A DNA stretch of 64,000 bases from a phage: the NCBI GenBank assembly GCA_022897995.1, contig GCA_022897995.1_4763.1; one strand, written 5' to 3'. The position numbers and the translations under genes are program-made. The notes beneath the pieces were generated by a model. That model ran no database searches. It was not told the DNA's origin and saw only the letters and a program-made list of their open reading frames with translations. Shown piece after piece: positions 2,329 through 52,607 of the stretch. Position 1 is the stretch's first letter. Every line of letters starts with the position of its first letter.

Positions 2329-2832
2329 ATGCAATTTACACCAGAAGAACTTAACATCATTGATGAAGTGATGAACTCTAAAGAAAATATCGATATGTCG
2401 ATCCTTAATGGATTGATTGAAAAGACTGAGCGGTTAGTGCATCATGAAGCCTTGTATCGCGGTGTGAGCAAAAGAGAAGGCCGTAAGCTGGATACCTTAA
2501 TTGTAGGTGATTCTTTCGTTGTAGAGCGTCCTATGAGCTTTACGCCACTGCAATCAACAGCAGAGGACTTTGCAACCGATGTTTATGCAACAGGAAAGAT
2601 TATTGCAATAAAACCTACCAAGCCTTGCATGAATTATTACGAACATGCTATTGACCGAGTGGTGTCTAAAGAGTATGACAATCCGACTACTCGACTGTCT
2701 TTGTATGCTATGTTGGCAGATGAGCGCGAGTGCATATACAAGACAGGGACGACCATGATCCTTGATGAGATCGAGGAAGTTTACGCGTGTAACGGCGATC
2801 TGATAGAGATTTACAAATTTTCTTTAATTTAA
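2329..2832 (+). CDS. Putative ADP-ribosyltransferase (ModA/ModB-like)
   Basis: 167 aa; candidate R-S-ExE triad (LYRG, SFT/QST, ERE); sits where modA/modB lie in T4 (between 56 and dda). Confidence 0.45.
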   Translation: MQFTPEELNIIDEVMNSKENIDMSILNGLIEKTERLVHHEALYRGVSKREGRKLDTLIVGDSFVVERPMSFTPLQSTAEDFATDVYATGKIIAIKPTKPCMNYYEHAIDRVVSKEYDNPTTRLSLYAMLADERECIYKTGTTMILDEIEEVYACNGDLIEIYKFSLI

Positions 2833-2835
2833 GTG

Positions 2836-2893
2836 TTGACAGCACAAACCAGATAGACAATAATACACACATACCAACTAAGGAGAATCAATT
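2836..2893 (+). promoter_or_regulatory. Early promoter cassette (TTGACA -35, ATAATA -10, conserved leader and RBS)
   Basis: TTGACA at 2836-2841; leader cacacataccaactaaggagaatcaatt shared with other cassettes; no stem-loop in this copy. Confidence 0.5.
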
Positions 2894-3649
2894 ATGAAAC
2901 TGTTTGCTTTTAAATCTAACGAAGAATTGGCGCTGGTTGTTTTCCGGCTGAACTCTATCATGGCTGGTGCTTCACGTCGCAACAAAGACTTCTCTATGAG
3001 CTTAGTCACTGTGCGTAACATTTACCGTCAGACTCATTGCGCCTATTCCGGTGAGGCTTTCGGTGAAGGTGATGATGGACTCTCCTTAGAGCGCATTGAT
3101 TGCAATCTAGGATATGTTGATGGCAATGTAATTCCGGTTAAACTGAAATACAATTCTTTCCGTGGCAATCACACTATCGAATCTCTTAAAGAGATCCAGG
3201 AACTAGGAACTAACGGTAAACTTTCTGATGATGAAATTGCCCTACGTGCGAAGTACATCGAGTGGATCGAACTTAACGAGAATCGCATCAAAAATCAGGA
3301 AATAGCAATCGAAGAAAAGAAGTTAGCAATCGAGCGCCACAAAAAGCACAACGAACCGGAGAAAGCAGAGGCAGCCGAGCGAGCGATTAAAAATACTCTC
3401 TTCCGTATGGAAGAACGTTATCAGAAAATTGCAGATCTCAAGCAAGCCCTTAGCGAAATCAACAAGAAAGAAGAAAAACTTAAGGCTATTGCAAACAATA
3501 CCGAAATCGTGCTAAAATATACCAGCGTTTTGATTGAATCTCTTTCTAAGTATGAGAACTTAACGCCAGCACAAAAAGAACGCGTGAAATACGGGCTTCC
3601 GATTGATGCGTCGTGGATTGAATTGATGAAAGCGAAGGTAGGTTTATAA
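2894..3649 (+). CDS. Hypothetical protein with coiled-coil C-terminal half
   Basis: 251 aa ORF with RBS AAGGAG; N-terminal SLERID...GNVIPV...NSFRGNH weakly His-Me-finger-like; K/E-rich C-terminal half. Confidence 0.4.
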   Translation: MKLFAFKSNEELALVVFRLNSIMAGASRRNKDFSMSLVTVRNIYRQTHCAYSGEAFGEGDDGLSLERIDCNLGYVDGNVIPVKLKYNSFRGNHTIESLKEIQELGTNGKLSDDEIALRAKYIEWIELNENRIKNQEIAIEEKKLAIERHKKHNEPEKAEAAERAIKNTLFRMEERYQKIADLKQALSEINKKEEKLKAIANNTEIVLKYTSVLIESLSKYENLTPAQKERVKYGLPIDASWIELMKAKVGL

Positions 3650-21046: not shown

Positions 21047-21109
21047 AGCCGTTTCTCCTTAGTAGTTCCCTTCCGTGGGAGTTTTCCTTAATTCTTTTTA
21101 TAATTACGT

Positions 21110-21889
21110 CTAAACAGCCGGTCCGTAAATAGCTCCGCGATTTATCCACGTTGGAGCAGACCCTATAACAGCATAACCAGCACCGCCGCCGTTATATTCT
21201 GTGCCGGTACCGTGAGTATTACATCTACCTCCTGCGGAGCCAACTTCGCCGCCATTCCCGCCTGTATATGCACTAAGAGACCCCTCACCGACAGATCCTG
21301 CACCCGGAGCGTAAATGGAGCCAGCGGTTGCACCAGAACTCATATGAGAGGAAGACCCGCCACCACCGAATGGGCGACCACCGCCACCACCAAATACTAG
21401 TCTACCCCTGTTACCGCCGCCACCGCCGCCACCGCCGCCAGCGATAGCACCGCCATTATTAATTCTTAGCCTCCCACCAATATCATTTTGAATACAATGA
21501 CCCCCAGATGAGCCAGGACTATTACTACCGCCATTACCGCCACGACCATACATCGTTACGCCGTGTATATTTAACTGAACATATTCATTTGGTGTATCCC
21601 CGTACATGAAGAATAAAGGAACATCTTTAGAATATGATACTAAATCACCTGTAATATTAAACACTATAGGTGTACTACCTGCCTCAAAGCATCTATCACG
21701 GAACCACTGACCATTGAAGTTATGGTCTGCTCCAAGTGTATGAATAATTTCTCGCGAGCGACCTGCAAATTGACTCATCCAGCAAGGAACACCCAATCTT
21801 AGTTGACCAGCCGCTTGACTCATCCACCGTTGTCCTGTTTCATTTGCGGCTGAACTTCCAATCCAACCGGGAACACCAACTACTGCCAT
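21110..21889 (-). CDS. 38: Long tail fibre adhesin gp38 (T2-type, glycine-rich motifs)
   Basis: 259 aa; several poly-Gly stretches separated by variable segments; directly downstream of gp37. Confidence 0.8.
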
Positions 21890-21925
21890 AATTTATACTC
21901 CAAAGGGGGCAATGCCCCCTTGTTG

Positions 21926-24694
21926 TTAGAATTTAAAATATTTACTAATTTTGCGAGCAATTTTAGTAAAGAAAGGAGTTTTCAATTCTTTAATTTCTTC
22001 ACTCATTTCCTGAATAGCCTTAATTAAAAGAGCATTCACTGCCGAGTTAGAAATTGTCAGAACGTCAGATCCATCAACTTCAACTTTCGATACAGCTTCC
22101 GGCAATTCTTTTTCAAGATCCTGAGCAATAATACCAGCTTCACGTTTAATCACACTACGATCTTTAATAGACTTAACTTTATCGTAAGTATAAACTTTCA
22201 GACGGCATACTTTTTCAAGTGCTCCGTTTTCTAACTCTTCTTTATTAATCTTAAGACGGTCATCAGAACGAATATAAACATCGTTAAAGTTACCATTACC
22301 AGGACAGTAAAAAGTACCATCATGATGGAACTCGAATACAGCTTGAGGATGACCAGCCGCTGGCGATGCCTCCGCAGATCCAACACGAATAATTGCTTGT
22401 CCCCAATTGTTAGGAACACGACGCATACCAAAATCGACGGCAGTTGTATATCCTTGATTGGTGATTAAACTTCTGCCTTTAATAATTGGGTAATAACTGT
22501 CTGGTCCAACATAGCCGTGGTCAACAAATATCGGCGCTTCTAATCCCCATTGGTCGTTCCAACTTCCAGATTGGCTAGCAGTCCAACGTTCACCATGAAC
22601 ATAGAATCGAACGTTATTGACATGAGTCATTTCGATGCCTTTTGGACTTAGTGCGATATCCCCCGCGTTTGTAATGTATATGGCAGCATTAGTAGCATAA
22701 CTATAGAACGCTAATCCATTATCAGCACCACCTTTACCGATATACCAGTTGTTATTATCAGCACAAGTACCCAACAAATATACCGACGAATCTCCCGTTT
22801 CAGCATTAATGGTAATAGCGTCAGAACCACGATTAACTTTCAGTTTCCCAAAGAATGTATTTTGAATGGTGTTATCACCTTTACGCTCAAATTCGGCTAA
22901 AAATCCTTTTGAGTCACGAAGACTTAAAACGTTATTTCGACCTATATTGCTTGCCCCCCAATGGACGATTTCCATATAGTCCATAGATTGACGAGAACCA
23001 GCTTTAAAGAAAAGATTGTCCTCAAGACGAGTGCTGCCATCAATTCCAAGATGCAAACAACGAGCGGTTTCAGTACCACCTAAATATAATCCACCGTCCG
23101 CAAAATTATAGCTGAATGGTCTGCGATTATTCCAACTACCAAAAGAATCTTTTAAATTGGTAGTAAGAATATGGAAATTAGAACCATCATTGCGTAACAT
23201 CAAACCATAGTTACCGCCTTTGACAGCCAAACGAGCATTTTCAGACAATGCAACTTCGCCATTCATTACAATTTTCTGGCCTTTACCACCAGAAATCTGT
23301 AATTCACCGTTTTCGAGCAAGTTTATCGAGTTTTGACCGTTATCGTTCCACCAAATAAAATCTTTGGTCTGACCATCACCGAAACCAAACCAGCCATTAC
23401 GAACATCTTGTCCAGTGCGATAATCCATAAAATTAAAATGGCTTGCTTCGTTTGGTCCTCGACGAATGTCAATACCGGCATTACCAACACCACCATCCAA
23501 CGTTAATCTCTTGACATGTAACCCGGTTACAGCCGAAAGCAATAATTCCTGACTTGTATCTTCGTATCCAGTAGCAAGACGATATGAGTTAGCATCAACT
23601 GTCTCATGCCAGATAGTGGCAGGAGCACAACTACGGAAGCGACGCAACATCTTTTTAGCATTTGTCGGTTGTTCGTTCAAATGCTCAATGTCATATTGGC
23701 CTTGAGAATTAGCACCAAAATTTAATGTCCCGTGGTTGCGATGAGTACTAAATGAAGTGATTGTATAAGCATCGAACTTTGTTTCAGCTTCCGGTAATTG
23801 ACCTCCTATAAATTGTGGTTTATCATATAAAGTCAGGTTAACATCAGGGCTAGTCTGGTATTCAGCCAACACAAATCCAGTATGACCGGAATAGCTACCG
23901 TATATATCATAAGAGTCACCACCAGTAGGAATAGCACAAAACTTCTGGTCTATATACCAGATGGTCATATAAGCGTTAAACACAACACCAACCGGATTTC
24001 CATTCCCGCTACGCAGAACCAATTCAATAATATTAGCTTGCCCGGTCTGTCCTACATTATAACCATTACCACCAACCAATCTAATTTTAGCACTACGCCC
24101 ATATTGTTGTGGTAGATATACTGTCGCGATTTTAAACCAACCGAACTCAATTCCAAAATCAAGTGTCTTTTGGAACATCCGATCTACTTCTTGTTTGCTG
24201 TACACATTCAATTCCGACGGACTAGGCTTATCACCTTCGTGATACATGCGATATGAATATGCCAATACACCATCAGCGTTATAACCATAGGTTTTTACAG
24301 TAGGAACAACGTTAGAACCATAAGTAAAATCCAACCCACGAGCATGATTTATACCGCTAGGATGGGGAATATGCAAAGCCAATGCTAGATGACCATCCAT
24401 ATCATTAGTACGAAATGCCCCAAATTTATCAAGATTTCGTGAGGTCGGGTCATCGAAATAGTTTGCGGTATTACTCCACACAAGGTCATCCACAACCACG
24501 CGGCCTCTTACATCAAAGCCTTTGTCATAAACAGGAGGGCAGCTTAAATTAACAATTTGCCCATCATCATTTTTTGTAAGCAGATATTGGTCTGCTAAGT
24601 TAATTGCCAACTCTCCCGGATTCATCGTACCAGCATCCGGTTTACGTCCGGCTGCGCTAGTGCGTTTAAACTGGATTCTGTTTAAATCTGCCAT
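21926..24694 (-). CDS. 37: Long tail fibre distal subunit gp37
   Basis: 922 aa; N-terminus MADLNRIQFKRTSAAG...GELAINL matches T4 gp37 N-terminus as recalled. Confidence 0.85.
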   Translation of the reverse strand: MADLNRIQFKRTSAAGRKPDAGTMNPGELAINLADQYLLTKNDDGQIVNLSCPPVYDKGFDVRGRVVVDDLVWSNTANYFDDPTSRNLDKFGAFRTNDMDGHLALALHIPHPSGINHARGLDFTYGSNVVPTVKTYGYNADGVLAYSYRMYHEGDKPSPSELNVYSKQEVDRMFQKTLDFGIEFGWFKIATVYLPQQYGRSAKIRLVGGNGYNVGQTGQANIIELVLRSGNGNPVGVVFNAYMTIWYIDQKFCAIPTGGDSYDIYGSYSGHTGFVLAEYQTSPDVNLTLYDKPQFIGGQLPEAETKFDAYTITSFSTHRNHGTLNFGANSQGQYDIEHLNEQPTNAKKMLRRFRSCAPATIWHETVDANSYRLATGYEDTSQELLLSAVTGLHVKRLTLDGGVGNAGIDIRRGPNEASHFNFMDYRTGQDVRNGWFGFGDGQTKDFIWWNDNGQNSINLLENGELQISGGKGQKIVMNGEVALSENARLAVKGGNYGLMLRNDGSNFHILTTNLKDSFGSWNNRRPFSYNFADGGLYLGGTETARCLHLGIDGSTRLEDNLFFKAGSRQSMDYMEIVHWGASNIGRNNVLSLRDSKGFLAEFERKGDNTIQNTFFGKLKVNRGSDAITINAETGDSSVYLLGTCADNNNWYIGKGGADNGLAFYSYATNAAIYITNAGDIALSPKGIEMTHVNNVRFYVHGERWTASQSGSWNDQWGLEAPIFVDHGYVGPDSYYPIIKGRSLITNQGYTTAVDFGMRRVPNNWGQAIIRVGSAEASPAAGHPQAVFEFHHDGTFYCPGNGNFNDVYIRSDDRLKINKEELENGALEKVCRLKVYTYDKVKSIKDRSVIKREAGIIAQDLEKELPEAVSKVEVDGSDVLTISNSAVNALLIKAIQEMSEEIKELKTPFFTKIARKISKYFKF

Positions 24695-35495: not shown

Positions 35496-35524
35496 GAACT
35501 AATCGAAACAACGGAGGATTAACA

Positions 35525-35854
35525 ATGTTTTTGAATGCTACCCTTTCCCAGAAAAGTGATAAAATCGAACTTCTGTATGTCATTGCTGATGTAGACGTAC
35601 AACGAAGAAATATAGATTTAAAAATTCACAAATATTATACTATGAGCGAATATCACGAAATCGAGATCCCACATAGTGTGTATCCCGCATTATTGTTAGG
35701 AAAAGGAAATCTAAGTGAATATTCTTTGAAAGTCATCAAAGATTCTAAATCAATGCTTGCTCATATGGAAAAAGATTTTCTTGATGAAGTTTCCGCGCTA
35801 GTTATTAAACTGAAAGAAGAAACAGCACCGCTTTTCATGGAACAAAAAGGTTGA
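35525..35854 (+). CDS. Hypothetical protein
   Basis: 109 aa ORF with RBS GGAGGA. Confidence 0.35.
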   Translation: MFLNATLSQKSDKIELLYVIADVDVQRRNIDLKIHKYYTMSEYHEIEIPHSVYPALLLGKGNLSEYSLKVIKDSKSMLAHMEKDFLDEVSALVIKLKEETAPLFMEQKG

Positions 35855-41289: not shown

Positions 41290-42450
41290 ATGAGCGTATT
41301 TAACCGCGAACATGTTGATATTATGAACGAACCGATGTTTCTGGGTAGTGGGTTGGGTATCGCTCGCTATGATATTCAGCGTCATCAAGTATTTGAAGAA
41401 CTGATCGAAAAGCAATTGTCATTTTTCTGGCGTCCAGAAGAGATTTCACTTGCAACCGACCGCATACAATATCTTAATATGGGTGACGTTGAAAAGCGTT
41501 TCTTTACCGAAAACTTGAAGTATCAGACATTACTTGATTCTATTCAAGGTCGCGCACCGTCCGCAGCATTTGGTCCAATTGTATCTGATCCAACTCTCGA
41601 TACATGGTTGCAAACATGGACATTCAGCGAAACGATTCATAGCCGAAGCTATACACACATTATGCGTAACTGTTTCATTGACCCGGCTAGTGAGTTTGAC
41701 CAGATCATCGATAACCCCGCTATCATGAAGCGAGCGGAATCTATCGGGCAATATTATGATGATGTTCTTTATTGGATTCGTAAGTATGAGAATGCAAAAG
41801 AAGATCTCCGCTATTGGGAAGAACGAGACGACCAGACAGCATTAAATGATGCAAGAATATTTTTTGAAGATACAAAACGAGATCTGATGGCTTCGATTTA
41901 TCTGTGTGCACACTGCGTCAATGCACTGGAAGCAATCCGCTTTTATGTGTCCTTTGCATGTACTTTCAGCTTTGCCGAACGTGGTTTACTGGAAGGTAAC
42001 GCGAAGATCATGAAATTTATTGCGCGTGATGAACAACTTCATTTAAAAGGCACACAATACATTATTCGTCAATGGCAAACAGGGGCTGATGGTGATGAGT
42101 GGAAACAGATTGCGGAAGAACTTGAAGACGAAGCAACGAAAATCTTTCTGGATGTTGTCGAGCAAGAGAAAGAATGGGTAGATCACTTATTCGCAATGGG
42201 GGCAATTCCTAATCTGTCACCGGAAATTCTGAAAACCTATGTAGAATACCTGGCCGATTCCCGTATGCGTGCTGCCGGACTGAAAAGCCCGTTTAGTGTT
42301 CGTCGTCATCCGTTACCGTGGATGCGTAAATGGTTGAACTCTGACGAAGTACAGAATGCAGCGCAGGAAGTAGAGATTATGTATCTGGTATCTCAGGTTA
42401 ATACCGATTTAACAGACGATGACTACAACCGATTCGGGAAATATCTATGA
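41290..42450 (+). CDS. nrdB: Ribonucleotide reductase small subunit NrdB
   Basis: 386 aa; di-iron/tyrosyl radical fold blocks; uninterrupted (no intron). Confidence 0.9.
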   Translation: MSVFNREHVDIMNEPMFLGSGLGIARYDIQRHQVFEELIEKQLSFFWRPEEISLATDRIQYLNMGDVEKRFFTENLKYQTLLDSIQGRAPSAAFGPIVSDPTLDTWLQTWTFSETIHSRSYTHIMRNCFIDPASEFDQIIDNPAIMKRAESIGQYYDDVLYWIRKYENAKEDLRYWEERDDQTALNDARIFFEDTKRDLMASIYLCAHCVNALEAIRFYVSFACTFSFAERGLLEGNAKIMKFIARDEQLHLKGTQYIIRQWQTGADGDEWKQIAEELEDEATKIFLDVVEQEKEWVDHLFAMGAIPNLSPEILKTYVEYLADSRMRAAGLKSPFSVRRHPLPWMRKWLNSDEVQNAAQEVEIMYLVSQVNTDLTDDDYNRFGKYL

Positions 42451-42923
42451 TATATTTTGTCGATTTAGATTTTACGATCACAGATCCAACACATCGACTA
42501 GCAAAGATGCCAACCGAAAATCTTGATAAAGTCGAGTCATGGATCGAATATAACAAGGCATGTGGGGGAGATTCCCCCATTTACGATGTAATTCGTGTTA
42601 TTAATGCCCTTTCCGACAACGGGCATTTGATTTACATCCTCACCGGACGAAGTTCACATGCTTACATGGAAACGGTGGAATGGTTGATCGCTAATGATGT
42701 GTGTTTCGATAAAATCTTTATGAGAGGTCGCAATGATTCCCGTAAAGACTATCACATCAAATTAGAGGTAATTAAATCCTTTGATAAAGATGAAGTGGTG
42801 GGAGTATTCGAAGATAACCCAGAAGTGATTAAAGTTCTCCGAGAAAACGGCTATCGTGTCTTTGACGTAGGAAATCACAAAGATAAGACGCGAGCGGATA
42901 TTGCAAATCACGGTCATGATTAA
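42447..42923 (+). CDS. HAD-superfamily phosphatase-like protein
   Basis: 158 aa; N-terminal VDLDFTITD (DxDxT), later ILTGR and C-terminal Asp; resembles the phosphatase domain of polynucleotide kinase. Confidence 0.5.
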   Translation: MIYFVDLDFTITDPTHRLAKMPTENLDKVESWIEYNKACGGDSPIYDVIRVINALSDNGHLIYILTGRSSHAYMETVEWLIANDVCFDKIFMRGRNDSRKDYHIKLEVIKSFDKDEVVGVFEDNPEVIKVLRENGYRVFDVGNHKDKTRADIANHGHD

Positions 42924-43999: not shown

Positions 44000-44006
44000 T
44001 AAGGTG

Positions 44007-44031
44007 GGCGGGAGAAATCCCGCCTTTGTTG
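44007..44031 (+). terminator. Rho-independent terminator-like hairpin
   Basis: GGCGGGA-gaaa-TCCCGCC followed by TTTGTTG. Confidence 0.45.
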
Positions 44032-44049
44032 TGACGTGAGGAAAGGATA

Positions 44050-44513
44050 ATGATTAATGAGCTAATAGAAAACTATGGATTCGTTAAATATTCATGTTTA
44101 GAGTGTAAAGATGGTGATGTGATTCTACCGCCTCAGAAGAACCGTTTAAATGTTCTTTACGCTATTGTGGTTGATGATGAACTGGTATATATATTGGTCA
44201 GACTGTTAATCTCAGAAAGCGGATCAATTATTACCGGACTAGCATTAACAGACAGACACCAACGGCGGATACTCGCAAGAGTAAGAATATTCATAAGGCG
44301 CTAGAGGAAGGGAAGACAGTAACATTCTATTACCGCCAGTGCTTTGAGTTATATATTGAGAATCCAACGGGTAAAGATATTATAAGCACTGCCGATATCG
44401 AAGAACCTGTTTTGATCACCAAATTTAAACCAGAATGGAACACAAATTATGTCAACAAAAGAAAACAACAAAAAAGTTTTAGCATTGTTCAAAAATCTGA
44501 TGGCACTATGTGA
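44050..44513 (+). pseudogene. denA: Endonuclease II (DenA)-like GIY-YIG nuclease gene interrupted by a frameshift in a (TA)4 tract
   Basis: Frame from ATG 44050 gives ...NVLYAIVVDDELVYI then stops at 44304; the +2 frame from 44190 continues YIGQTVNLRKRINYYR...FELYIENP to TGA 44511-44513; joint is tatatata at 44186-44193. Confidence 0.5.
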
Positions 44514-45618
44514 CGGATCTGATACGTTCTATTACAAAGATGAAATTACGGCGATGCAAACCCGTATGCGCATTTTTAGCTATCTGTACTTGAGCAAACC
44601 GGAAATGTGGAATAAACCAGATGCGTTAGAGTGTCGCGGGATCATGTTTGAAATCGATGATAAAGACCGACCAGTCCGCATTGCATCTCGTCCTATGGAG
44701 AAGTTTTTTAATTTAGGCGAGAATGACCGCGCTCGCTTTAAGCCGGAAGAGGTGGAAATGGTCATGGACAAAATGGACGGTAGTCTAGTAAGCACATACA
44801 TTGATAACGGCTATGTTCAGTTGAAGTCTAAAGCGGCATTGTACTCAAGCCAGGCAGAGAGAGCAAACGGTCTTCTGTATTCAGAGAAGTATGCGGAACT
44901 ACGTGCTAAGATCGCCGATATTGGATCTGATTATACTTTCAACTTTGAATATACAGCACCAAGCAACCGAATTGTTGTAGAATACAACGAACCGTCGCTG
45001 ACACTTCTGAATGTACGCCATAACGTCACAGGAGAGTATGTACCGCATCAAATTATATTCTCCGATGCAATCCTGCGTCCTCATTTGGTAAATGCGTTAC
45101 AGGTTGATTCAGCGCGTTTTAGCAATATTCTTGATGAAGTTCGGGTAGCGGAAGGTATCGAGGGAATTGTTGCACGAACCAAAGACGGTCAGATGTTCAA
45201 GGTGAAAAGTGAATGGTATATTGGTGTGCATAACATTAAAAACACATCGATGTTTCCTAATAACCTGATCTACTATGTAGTAGAAAGCGAAACCGATGAT
45301 TTGCGTGCTGCATATGAAGGTGAACCGGAAGCACTGGAACGAATCGAGCTATTCGAGGAAGCATTCAGGTCTATTCTTCGCAATGCCTTCACGACAGCAA
45401 CAGAATTTTATAACACACACGCGGGAGAAGACAGAAAGACATATGCATCCAATGCGACTATCGAATCACGTAAACATGGTGATGCACAAGCATATATTTT
45501 CATGTGTCTGATGATTGCATTTGATGGTCTTGATTATGACCGTATTCTGGCTTCAATGAAAACTTACTATATACGGAATTATAAGAAACTGATTCCGGCT
45601 GATAAGATTGATTGGTAA
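44449..45618 (+). CDS. rnlA: RNA ligase 1 (T4 gp63/RnlA homolog)
   Basis: 389 aa; ALECRGIMFE, RIASRPMEKFFNLGEN, KxDG ligase motif (DKMDGSLVS), RKTYAS; matches T4 Rnl1. Confidence 0.85.
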   Translation: MSTKENNKKVLALFKNLMALCDGSDTFYYKDEITAMQTRMRIFSYLYLSKPEMWNKPDALECRGIMFEIDDKDRPVRIASRPMEKFFNLGENDRARFKPEEVEMVMDKMDGSLVSTYIDNGYVQLKSKAALYSSQAERANGLLYSEKYAELRAKIADIGSDYTFNFEYTAPSNRIVVEYNEPSLTLLNVRHNVTGEYVPHQIIFSDAILRPHLVNALQVDSARFSNILDEVRVAEGIEGIVARTKDGQMFKVKSEWYIGVHNIKNTSMFPNNLIYYVVESETDDLRAAYEGEPEALERIELFEEAFRSILRNAFTTATEFYNTHAGEDRKTYASNATIESRKHGDAQAYIFMCLMIAFDGLDYDRILASMKTYYIRNYKKLIPADKIDW

Positions 45619-45624
45619 TAATAA

Positions 45625-45650
45625 GCGGGGCTTGCCCCGCCTTTTGTCGT
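45625..45650 (+). terminator. Terminator-like hairpin after RNA ligase
   Basis: GCGGGG-cttg-CCCCGC followed by CTTTTGT. Confidence 0.45.
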
Positions 45651-45984: not shown

Positions 45985-46433
45985 GCATAGAAATATTGCC
46001 TACGCAAGAGCAGATAAGCAATTTTAATCTGGTTGATTATCTGGGGATAGGTGCAAGCATTATTATCCTGATGGTGTTTTCAATTTTCGTGATACACTGG
46101 ATGTTTAAGAAAGCACATAAGAATTTTCAGACCGCCATAATCCATGTCTTCGCTGTACCTATTGTATTTGCTCTTTCTTCGTGTACAATGGACCATTATT
46201 CACAGGAACCGAAATTACATCCTCCACTACCAGCACCAATAGAAAAAGTTGACATTGACCTGAAAGTGGATACAATAGACGGTAAACCTAGAGTTTCTAT
46301 GTCGTGGGAGGACTCCCAAAAATTCAGAGTCTGGCTTGCGGATATCAAGAGATATACACTTGAAAGTAAGTTGATCATGTGTTATTATCGCAAAGAACTT
46401 AATGAGGAACGGTGCAAACCGAAGGAGAAATAA
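45981..46433 (+). CDS. Putative o-spanin (outer-membrane lipoprotein) with N-terminal extension
   Basis: 150 aa; internal lipoprotein signal MFKKAHKNFQTAIIHVFAVPIVFALSSC (lipobox LSSC, possible internal start near 46101) preceded by a hydrophobic segment; ATGA overlap with i-spanin. Confidence 0.45.
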   Translation: MSIEILPTQEQISNFNLVDYLGIGASIIILMVFSIFVIHWMFKKAHKNFQTAIIHVFAVPIVFALSSCTMDHYSQEPKLHPPLPAPIEKVDIDLKVDTIDGKPRVSMSWEDSQKFRVWLADIKRYTLESKLIMCYYRKELNEERCKPKEK

Positions 46434-47311
46434 TGCCGAAATGTGAAGTGATTTTAACCGTTGGTTGTTCTGGGTCCGGTAAAACTACATGGGCTATGGA
46501 AACATGTAAACGGTTTAGTAATTATCGTAATGTGAATCGTGATGACCTTCGTCTTATGTTGTTTGGTGTTGACTCGCATTTGAAATACAAGTATACTAAG
46601 GAAAAAGAAAAGCTGGTAGAGTCTATTCAGAGAATGATTGCTCGCGAGACTCTATCACGCGGATTGAGTATCATTATCTCTGATACCAACCTGAAAGAAA
46701 AACATCGTGTATTCTACAAAGAACTTGCAAAAGAATTTAACGCGGTGTATACTGAACAAGTGTTCAATGAATCATTTGAGACACTAAAGAAACGTAATTT
46801 CTATCGTGGAGAGAAAGCAATTCCACTTTCTCATTTGCGTAACCAATTTTATCTGATGCAGGAATATATGGGTCAAGAAGTATACAAACCGAATACCATG
46901 CTGCCAAAGGCAGTGATCTTTGATATTGATGGGACATTAGCGGATAAAGGCGGTCGTCATCCGTTTGACTGGACAAAGGTCAAAGAAGATAAACCGCGTC
47001 CGCAAGTGATCGAAATGCTTAAACTGTATCGTGACAATGGCTATCGTATCATTACGTGCTCAGGTCGTGAGGATGTTTGCGAGGAAGATACGCTGCAATG
47101 GTTGCGTGAACAAGGTATCGAACCTAGCGATCACTTCCAGCGTGAAACTAATGATCGACGTCCAGACCATGAGGTGAAGAAAGAGATCTTTTTCTCGGAA
47201 ATTGCACCGCGTTATCATGTTGTTTTGGCGGTAGATGACCGTGATCAAGTGGTTGACATGTACCGCACAATCGGTGTAGAATGTTTTCAGGTTAACTACG
47301 GAGACTTTTAA
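46433..47311 (+). CDS. pseT: Polynucleotide kinase / 3'-phosphatase (PseT)
   Basis: P-loop GCSGSGKTTW, HAD motif DIDGTL, C-terminal VDDRDQVVDMYRTIGVECFQV match T4 PseT; start ATG 46433 (TAATG overlap). Confidence 0.9.
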   Translation: MPKCEVILTVGCSGSGKTTWAMETCKRFSNYRNVNRDDLRLMLFGVDSHLKYKYTKEKEKLVESIQRMIARETLSRGLSIIISDTNLKEKHRVFYKELAKEFNAVYTEQVFNESFETLKKRNFYRGEKAIPLSHLRNQFYLMQEYMGQEVYKPNTMLPKAVIFDIDGTLADKGGRHPFDWTKVKEDKPRPQVIEMLKLYRDNGYRIITCSGREDVCEEDTLQWLREQGIEPSDHFQRETNDRRPDHEVKKEIFFSEIAPRYHVVLAVDDRDQVVDMYRTIGVECFQVNYGDF

Positions 47312-52046: not shown

Positions 52047-52355
52047 ATGGAACGTACCAATTTGTTTGTAACCGAACCTTTCGTTGAAGGCAACAAGAAC
52101 CTTGCTAATACGGTTATTCTTTACGAAGATTGGATCTTTTACATTGACGAGAATTTAGACGTATATTGTCGTCCAACTCCAAATGACTCATTCTATATCG
52201 AAGAAAACGATACACATAATCATTGGTATAACGGAAACGACGAAACAGACCTTGCTATTGTTCTCGAATCAGGTGTAGAATCGGAACATGCAGATGAAGT
52301 AGCGGATAAATTTGTACAATACGCATATAAAGATAAAGATGAGGATGAAGAATAA
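52047..52355 (+). CDS. Acidic hypothetical protein
   Basis: 102 aa, highly D/E-rich with poly-acidic C-terminus. Confidence 0.35.
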   Translation: MERTNLFVTEPFVEGNKNLANTVILYEDWIFYIDENLDVYCRPTPNDSFYIEENDTHNHWYNGNDETDLAIVLESGVESEHADEVADKFVQYAYKDKDEDEE

Positions 52356-52362
52356 AAAGTTG

Positions 52363-52425
52363 TTGACAGGGGATCGGTGATCCCCTATACTACACACATA
52401 CCAACGAGATATAGGAGAATCAAAA
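52363..52425 (+). promoter_or_regulatory. PeSL-like promoter cassette
   Basis: TTGACA 52363-52368; GGGGATC-ggt-GATCCCC hairpin; TATACT 52386-52391. Confidence 0.6.
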
Positions 52426-52593
52426 ATGTTCCAGACTAAAGCAGAATGCGAAGCATACATTGTAGCAAACCACGGTGAAGACTACCTGAAATTCGATATC
52501 GTAGTAGCACAGAAGATCACCGGAATGGTTGCAAAATATCTGGGTGTTAAAGAAGGTTACTATCCAAGCAACGCACCAGAAATTAACAAATAA
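52426..52593 (+). CDS. Small hypothetical protein (55 aa)
   Basis: ATG 52426 downstream of cassette; below track cutoff. Confidence 0.3.
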   Translation: MFQTKAECEAYIVANHGEDYLKFDIVVAQKITGMVAKYLGVKEGYYPSNAPEINK

Positions 52594-52607
52594 TTTTATA
52601 AAAAGTG

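Follow-up and report, generated by a model that had tools for sequence, protein, structure and literature searches.

Probable inactivation of the endonuclease II gene denA in a Krischvirus genome by a recent expansion of a short TA tract

Endonuclease II (EndoII, DenA) of phage T4 is a tetrameric GIY-YIG nuclease, which starts the breakdown of cytosine-containing host DNA. The residues G49 and R57 are strictly conserved in GIY-YIG enzymes, and E118 has been described as the Mg-binding catalytic residue of the T4 protein (PMC2764454). It has recently been reported that T4 evades PANGU, an abortive-infection system that senses phage-induced genome degradation, repeatedly through denA, by missense, RBS and frameshift mutations, and that T4 without a functional denA can grow but loses to the wild-type in competition in the absence of the defence (bioRxiv 10.64898/2026.04.06.716658). 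Phages of the genus Krischvirus have DNA with canonical bases; the hmC pathway, denB, ndd and alc are absent, and denA and the dCTPase/dUTPase have been kept (PMC12115623 Table 4; PMC8056088). These phages perform generalized transduction (PMC12115623; PMC8056088), and the question has been raised of how the cytosine DNA of the phage itself escapes Krischvirus DenA (PMC8056088). Because denB, ndd and alc are absent, DenA appears to be the sole T4-type host-DNA nuclease that Krischviruses retain.

In this study, we analysed a 64-kb stretch of phage DNA, referred to here as the window, in which a preliminary description had placed a denA-like GIY-YIG gene split by a frameshift inside a TA repeat. 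The window was assigned to Krischvirus, the RB49-like, T4-type coliphages: a 2.1-kb stretch around denA matches 59 records at 95–99 %, the closest GenBank record being Shigella phage SSG23 (98.4 %; RB49, 96.7 %), and a 20-kb stretch of the window finds the same Krischvirus relatives. The denA frames, the TA tract, the hairpin and the Shine–Dalgarno-like sequence before denA, and rnlA all lie on the plus strand. The open reading frame that begins with the ATG at 44050 reads MINELI...LYAIVVDDELVYI (ending in DDELVYI) and then continues with LVRLLISESG...; this shortened denA frame (44050..44304) comprises 84 codons, 48 of which specify native DenA residues (M1–I48) and 36 of which are read out of frame, before a stop codon is reached. 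The rest of denA (44193..44513) is found out of frame, in a second frame that reads ...TGIYIGQTVNLRKRINYYR...FELYIENP... up to the stop codon at 44511–44513 or, in a fuller read-out, ...TGIYIGQTVNLRKRINYYRTSINRQ...FELYIENP...SDGTM. This frame is open from 44181, and the part that belongs to denA runs from codon I48 to M153, is undecayed and holds the GIY-YIG catalytic core. The frameshift site is the (TA)4 tract TATATATA (44186..44193), at which relatives have (TA)3 or TATACAT. In relatives with (TA)3 the tract is part of the codons GTA TAT ATT (V46 Y47 I48); in the window it falls in codons 47–49 (Y-I-G, part of the GIY motif), and the frameshift point lies exactly between I48 and G49. When one TA is deleted, a single 462-nt open reading frame of 153 aa is obtained. 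The start at 44050, the tract and stop positions and the overlap with the RNA ligase gene were all as first described, and the single repaired frame was recovered as well, although with 153 rather than the about 154 aa originally given.

A terminator-like GC hairpin (44006..44025; an 8-pair stem with 6 GC pairs and a T-rich tail) follows the upstream gene and marks where the denA–rnlA unit begins, and a second hairpin lies after rnlA (45625–45640). A Shine–Dalgarno-like sequence, GAGGAAAGG (44038..44046), was read from the sequence 3 nt 5' of the denA ATG; GGAAAGGATA (44040–44049) is identical across the RB49, SSG23, kvi and ELT3 alignments, with the GA at 44038–44039 lying outside the aligned stretch. 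The gene rnlA (RNA ligase 1/gp63; 44449..45618) is intact, as judged from its open reading frame and the annotation of relatives; its first 65 nt are overlapped by the 3' end of the denA frame, the stop codon of which lies inside the rnlA frame. The start of rnlA differs among annotations: RB49, SSG23 and ELT3 have it at an ATG that corresponds to 44449 in the window and sits within the denA frame, and in kvi (2399–3517) it has been placed 51 nt further downstream. In T4 the gene order is nrdB, denA, rnlA, followed by alc, pseT.3, pseT.2, pseT.1 and pseT; in the window and its relatives it is nrdB, a HAD/PNKP-like gene, several small ORFs, denA, rnlA, pseT.3, pseT.2 and pseT, and the segment from rnlA to pseT is ordered in the same way in the window, RB49 and SSG23. 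The absence of alc had been pointed out in the preliminary description, with the suggestion that it may indicate an altered host-DNA degradation or DNA modification biology. The gene is indeed absent, but as its absence is a published trait of all Krischviruses, it does not support a special DNA-modification biology in this phage, and a loss of alc peculiar to the window phage is ruled out (PMC12115623 Table 4; PMC8056088; same order in RB49 and SSG23). The HAD/PNKP-like gene directly after nrdB (42447–42923) encodes a 158-aa phosphatase, is labelled 'polynucleotide kinase' or '3'-phosphatase' in relatives, and is present in addition to a full-length pseT at 46412–47311.

Elsewhere in the window, some larger differences from RB49 were seen. 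The distal long-tail-fibre region (21100–24500) is 74–91 % identical to RB49 and has many paired indels, as compared with 96–98 % in the rest of the window; such divergence is expected of host-range determinants. RB49 has a 1458-nt 'endonuclease' gene, RB49p240, between the frd side and gene 32; this gene, which is presumably mobile, is absent from the window, where the site (35522–35844) comprises just about 320 nt. Finally, about 4 kb of small RB49 ORFs (RB49p192–p204, NC_005066 ~117.4–121.5 kb) are without a blastn counterpart at ~52350–52600 of the window, where the early region differs from RB49 by block replacement or deletion.

It had been proposed that the conceptually repaired protein be aligned to T4 DenA. 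Residues 3–134 of this protein align with residues 9–141 of the T4 EndoII chain in PDB 2WSH (E=2.6e-38), and it matches phrog_1111 'endonuclease' (E=2.1e-52). Against Pfam GIY-YIG (PF01541), the score of the repaired protein is 22.5 bits, the gathering cut-off being 22.6, and a precomputed PF01541 match is present on several homologues in a large protein database; a Pfam search with the actual 84-aa product gave no match. The repaired translation has VYIG49, NLRKR57 and, in DIEE-P, a glutamate aligned with position 118 of the T4 E118A structure, and G49, R57, K76 and E118 (T4 numbering, PMC2764454) are all missing from the 84-aa product. These matches and the nrdB–rnlA context bear out the original assignment, and the alignments indicate that the gene is a homologue of denA/T4 endonuclease II (GIY-YIG) at the T4 denA position, from the nrdB side to rnlA. 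Without an uninterrupted frame, the copy in the window appears to be a null allele or pseudogene of the EndoII/DenA family and not a functional member, and in annotation the 84-aa ORF should read 'frameshifted denA' and not 'endonuclease II'.

The locus was compared with 59 Krischvirus GenBank records, which were found by tblastn with the repaired protein. Two fewer bases are present at the TA site in 58 of these records, and the 153-aa gene is intact in 57. As regards the length of the repeat in related phages, which had been suggested as a check, the site reads GG-TATATAT-TGG or GG-TATACAT-TGG in 58 of the 59 relatives, the second form being that of kvi and PTE-Eco09, and T4 has just (TA)2 at this position. 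In a BLAST search with 81 nt across the site, the Krischvirus records span 79 nt and ELT3 alone spans 81. In the alignment with RB49, SSG23 and kvi, the extra TA is the sole length difference within the gene, which confirms that the frame is split by +2 within the TA repeat. RB49 DenA and 27 other records match the repaired protein at 100.0 % identity, and the sole split tblastn match was to ELT3. In JSE (EU863408/NC_012740) the tblastn match to DenA ends at residue 143 of 153, and the tail over rnlA differs. At the nucleotide level, denA in the window differs from that of RB49 at 10 positions, and all 10 differences are synonymous in the repaired frame. From this we infer that denA was under purifying selection until very recently, and that the frameshift is either very recent or not real. 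An exact-pattern scan for the (TA)4 form in viral, metagenome and genome contig collections gave 0 matches; the viral and metagenome collections were likewise without a match to the wild-type (TA)3 pattern, and as they evidently contain no Krischvirus denA of exactly this form, the scan is uninformative. An exact protein look-up with the 84-aa product of the window returned no record.

The tract TATATATA is the only run of at least four TA units in the 64-kb window and the longest of its 25 alternating T/A tracts of at least 6 nt. By chance, (TA)4 is expected at a mean of 2.1 per 64 kb, with at least one occurrence in 90 of 100 dinucleotide-preserving shuffles. The run alone is not beyond chance, and its significance lies in its place inside a gene that is conserved in frame in relatives.

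Interrupted denA genes were also found in other data sets. ELT3 (PQ368571) has the same additional TA, giving (TA)4, and its gene has been annotated as an 84-aa 'endonuclease II'. Apart from this, the window and ELT3 differ at 11 positions over 481 nt, and the SNPs closest to the tract lie 17 nt upstream and 15 nt downstream of it; it is unlikely that the allele is shared via recombination, as the tract would need to be exchanged on less than 38 bp between the flanking SNPs. A collection of 5.8 billion proteins returned two shortened DenA relatives, P0029 (84 aa) and P0028 (86 aa). P0029 is encoded on a Logan contig from SRR30645917 with (TA)4; between this contig and ELT3 there are 18 differences in 2347 nt. 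P0028 is encoded on the 17-kb Logan contig ERR3588729_6845 (3001–3470), where (TA)7, that is +8 nt, leads into the same wrong frame in a denA gene otherwise identical to that of RB49; this allele shows that the tract can go on expanding. The high index numbers of the two Logan contigs hint, if weakly, at an origin from complex samples. PTE-Eco09 (PQ306574.1, vB_EcoM_PTE-Eco09; 501–962) has a different denA knock-out, TAC>TAA at codon 61, and GenBank lists a 60-aa 'endonuclease' together with an overlapping hypothetical ORF. Every TA-expanded allele repairs to the RB49 protein without further damage. Shortened forms are rare, with 2 contigs versus more than 250 contigs for the 15 members of the intact cluster that were listed, and 2 of the 59 GenBank records. 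The allele of ELT3 and SRR30645917 may be shared by descent, which would make three independent TA events rather than four. For the 6–9-nt TA tract as a whole, independent expansions are counted in at least three genomes of Krischvirus. A literature search on ELT3, PQ368571, PQ306574, ERR3588729 and SRR30645917 found no publications.

We consider it likely that the window carries a genuine and recent loss-of-function allele of denA, made by slippage in a dispensable gene, at a site that is a minor hotspot for mutation. Streisinger-type replication slippage would add one TA to the (TA)3 of the codons GTA-TAT-ATT (V46-Y47-I48), and the +2 (or +8) frameshift would cut DenA off after residue 48, with 36 nonsense residues added in the window. 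Because the product misses G49, R57, K76 and E118, it would have no active GIY-YIG nuclease domain and the phage is expected to be EndoII-null. As denA is non-essential, frameshifts in the TA tract would be tolerated and the allele would survive in culture, and it is for this reason that the tract may act as a small recurrent hotspot. Where hosts have defences that sense damage, a null allele may gain an advantage; elsewhere it would be slowly purged or reverted. According to this explanation, the extra TA belongs to the phage DNA itself and not just to the assembly, no nuclease is made, and the loss would be neutral in culture, or favoured where defences sense the chromosome breakdown that EndoII starts. 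Counting against it, a tract as short as (TA)3 would not be expected to slip at high rates, and shortened denA alleles are rare. The preliminary description had listed a pseudogene, slippage-based phase variation and a sequencing error as possible explanations; the list is still right, with a recent null allele made by slippage now favoured, and strict phase variation was not borne out.

A sequencing, assembly or consensus artefact, in which the phage truly has (TA)3 and an intact denA and the extra TA stems from base-calling or polishing of a dinucleotide repeat, is in our view unlikely. A simple repeat is the site of the change, and beyond this point the gene is wholly undecayed, which is exactly how an error would look, and 58 of the 59 relatives do not have the extra TA. 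However, a 9-nt tract is far below read or k-mer length, and expansions of this tract are present in three further data sets of independent origin, in one case to (TA)7, where a gain of 8 nt is beyond base-calling error; it is because of these data sets that we favour a real slippage event. In addition, about 50 kb of the window was aligned to RB49 and every indel was listed. Indels with a length other than a multiple of three fall between genes or at gene ends, or form compensating pairs in the divergent tail-fibre and small-ORF regions, and the +2 in denA is the lone isolated, uncompensated internal frameshift in a conserved coding sequence, homopolymers included. This survey rules out an error-ridden assembly, and an artefact would have to be an error at this single site. 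Taken together, the sequence comparisons make a real mutation appear the better reading. As an alternative to a fixed (TA)4, it is possible, although unlikely, that the lysate was a mixture of (TA)3 and (TA)4 phages.

Somewhat less probable still is a reversible contingency locus, at which a change from (TA)3 to (TA)4 turns DenA OFF and the reverse change turns it back ON, the OFF state being favoured under defences that sense EndoII damage. This would be in line with the presence of (TA)3, (TA)4 and (TA)7 at one site in different genomes, with the location of three null alleles, out of four or five known, in the tract, with the lack of secondary decay in the null alleles, and with the length of the wild-type tract, which at 7 nt ranks in the top four of the alternating T/A tracts in the 64 kb. 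T4 denA-nulls escape PANGU at a fitness cost, which is a regime where switching pays, and if there is such a TA switch, OFF variants would evade abortive-infection systems (e.g. PANGU) and gain generalized-transduction potential. On the other hand, the wild-type tract has just three units and merely encodes V-Y-I of the GIY motif, (TA)4 is not enriched over chance, OFF alleles are rare and the repeat is not conserved. As T4 has only (TA)2 and the TATACAT alleles of the kvi type, also found in PTE-Eco09, break the tract, the hotspot seems to be an accident of codon choice and not a designed switch. Of the features by which phase variation is recognized, a length polymorphism that switches the frame was found here, and a long repeat conserved in the group was not. 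It is very improbable that full-length DenA is produced from the (TA)4 allele by recoding, either through a +2 ribosomal slip or through slippage of RNA polymerase. The +2 re-pairing would be perfect, with tRNA-Tyr moving from TAT at 44188–44190 to TAT at 44190–44192 and the exact wild-type sequence being restored, a support that is of a geometric kind only, and the shifted frame is open from 44181. Against this, relatives use a single frame, so that there is no conserved recoding signal, a canonical slippery heptamer is absent, and the downstream RNA structure is not significant (z=-1.57; 14 of 200 shuffles fold at least as well). A programmed ribosomal frameshift was rejected based on the single frame in relatives and the lack of a significant downstream fold. 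To our knowledge, neither +2 shifts of high efficiency nor slippage by dinucleotides in the course of transcription elongation have been established in this system.

If the slippage-made null allele is genuine, it is in itself nothing out of the ordinary, being a recent null allele of a dispensable gene that is well known, to which the recurrent TA expansion is a modest extra. The recurrent TA expansions and the one nonsense allele, all of them otherwise undecayed, suggest that denA is repeatedly lost and purged in Krischvirus. By analogy with T4, selection of the PANGU type would be a plausible explanation for denA-null alleles that recur in Krischvirus and yet are rare and young. Krischviruses are phage-therapy candidates and known generalized transducers; a DenA-null isolate may leave the host DNA more intact and transduce more, which would be relevant to the choice of therapeutic phages.

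Among described systems, T4 EndoII (2WSH) shares with the repaired Krischvirus protein the VYIG...NLRKRINYYR core, including G49 and R57, and the equivalent of E118, and its gene has the same genomic position, with nrdB and rnlA on either side. T4 EndoII has 136 aa, whereas Krischvirus DenA has 153 aa and ends in a C-terminal tail, the coding sequence of which overlaps rnlA; this tail, which lies beyond the end of T4 EndoII, may be dispensable. Moreover, the T4 gene is whole, whereas that of the window is frameshifted at codons 48/49 and its product is without the catalytic core. The two phages also differ in their wider biology, as Krischvirus, in contrast to T4, has canonical cytosine DNA and is without denB, ndd and alc. 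A second close system is the DenA of RB49, Phi1 and JSE (NP_891795): the repaired translation of the window is 100 % identical to RB49 DenA and the DNA about 98 % identical, but the RB49 gene has (TA)3 and that of the window (TA)4, resulting in a null allele.

The T4 denA mutants, that is the classical nd28 and the PANGU-escape mutants EM1–EM6, are viable with an inactive denA, as we propose for the window phage, and among the escape mutants there are frameshift deletions of 1 bp and 28 bp as well as an insertion of 1 bp (bioRxiv 10.64898/2026.04.06.716658). However, the T4 mutations were selected in the laboratory and are scattered over different sites, whereas the Krischvirus alleles are found in sequenced genomes and recur at one TA tract. 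A comparison can also be drawn with phase variation at simple sequence repeats. An example of this is provided by the hypermutable polyG tracts in Campylobacter phages. The denA tract is similar in that a repeat inside an ORF varies in length between genomes and thereby switches the frame; it differs from such loci in being very short, in not being conserved as a repeat, and in seldom being OFF.
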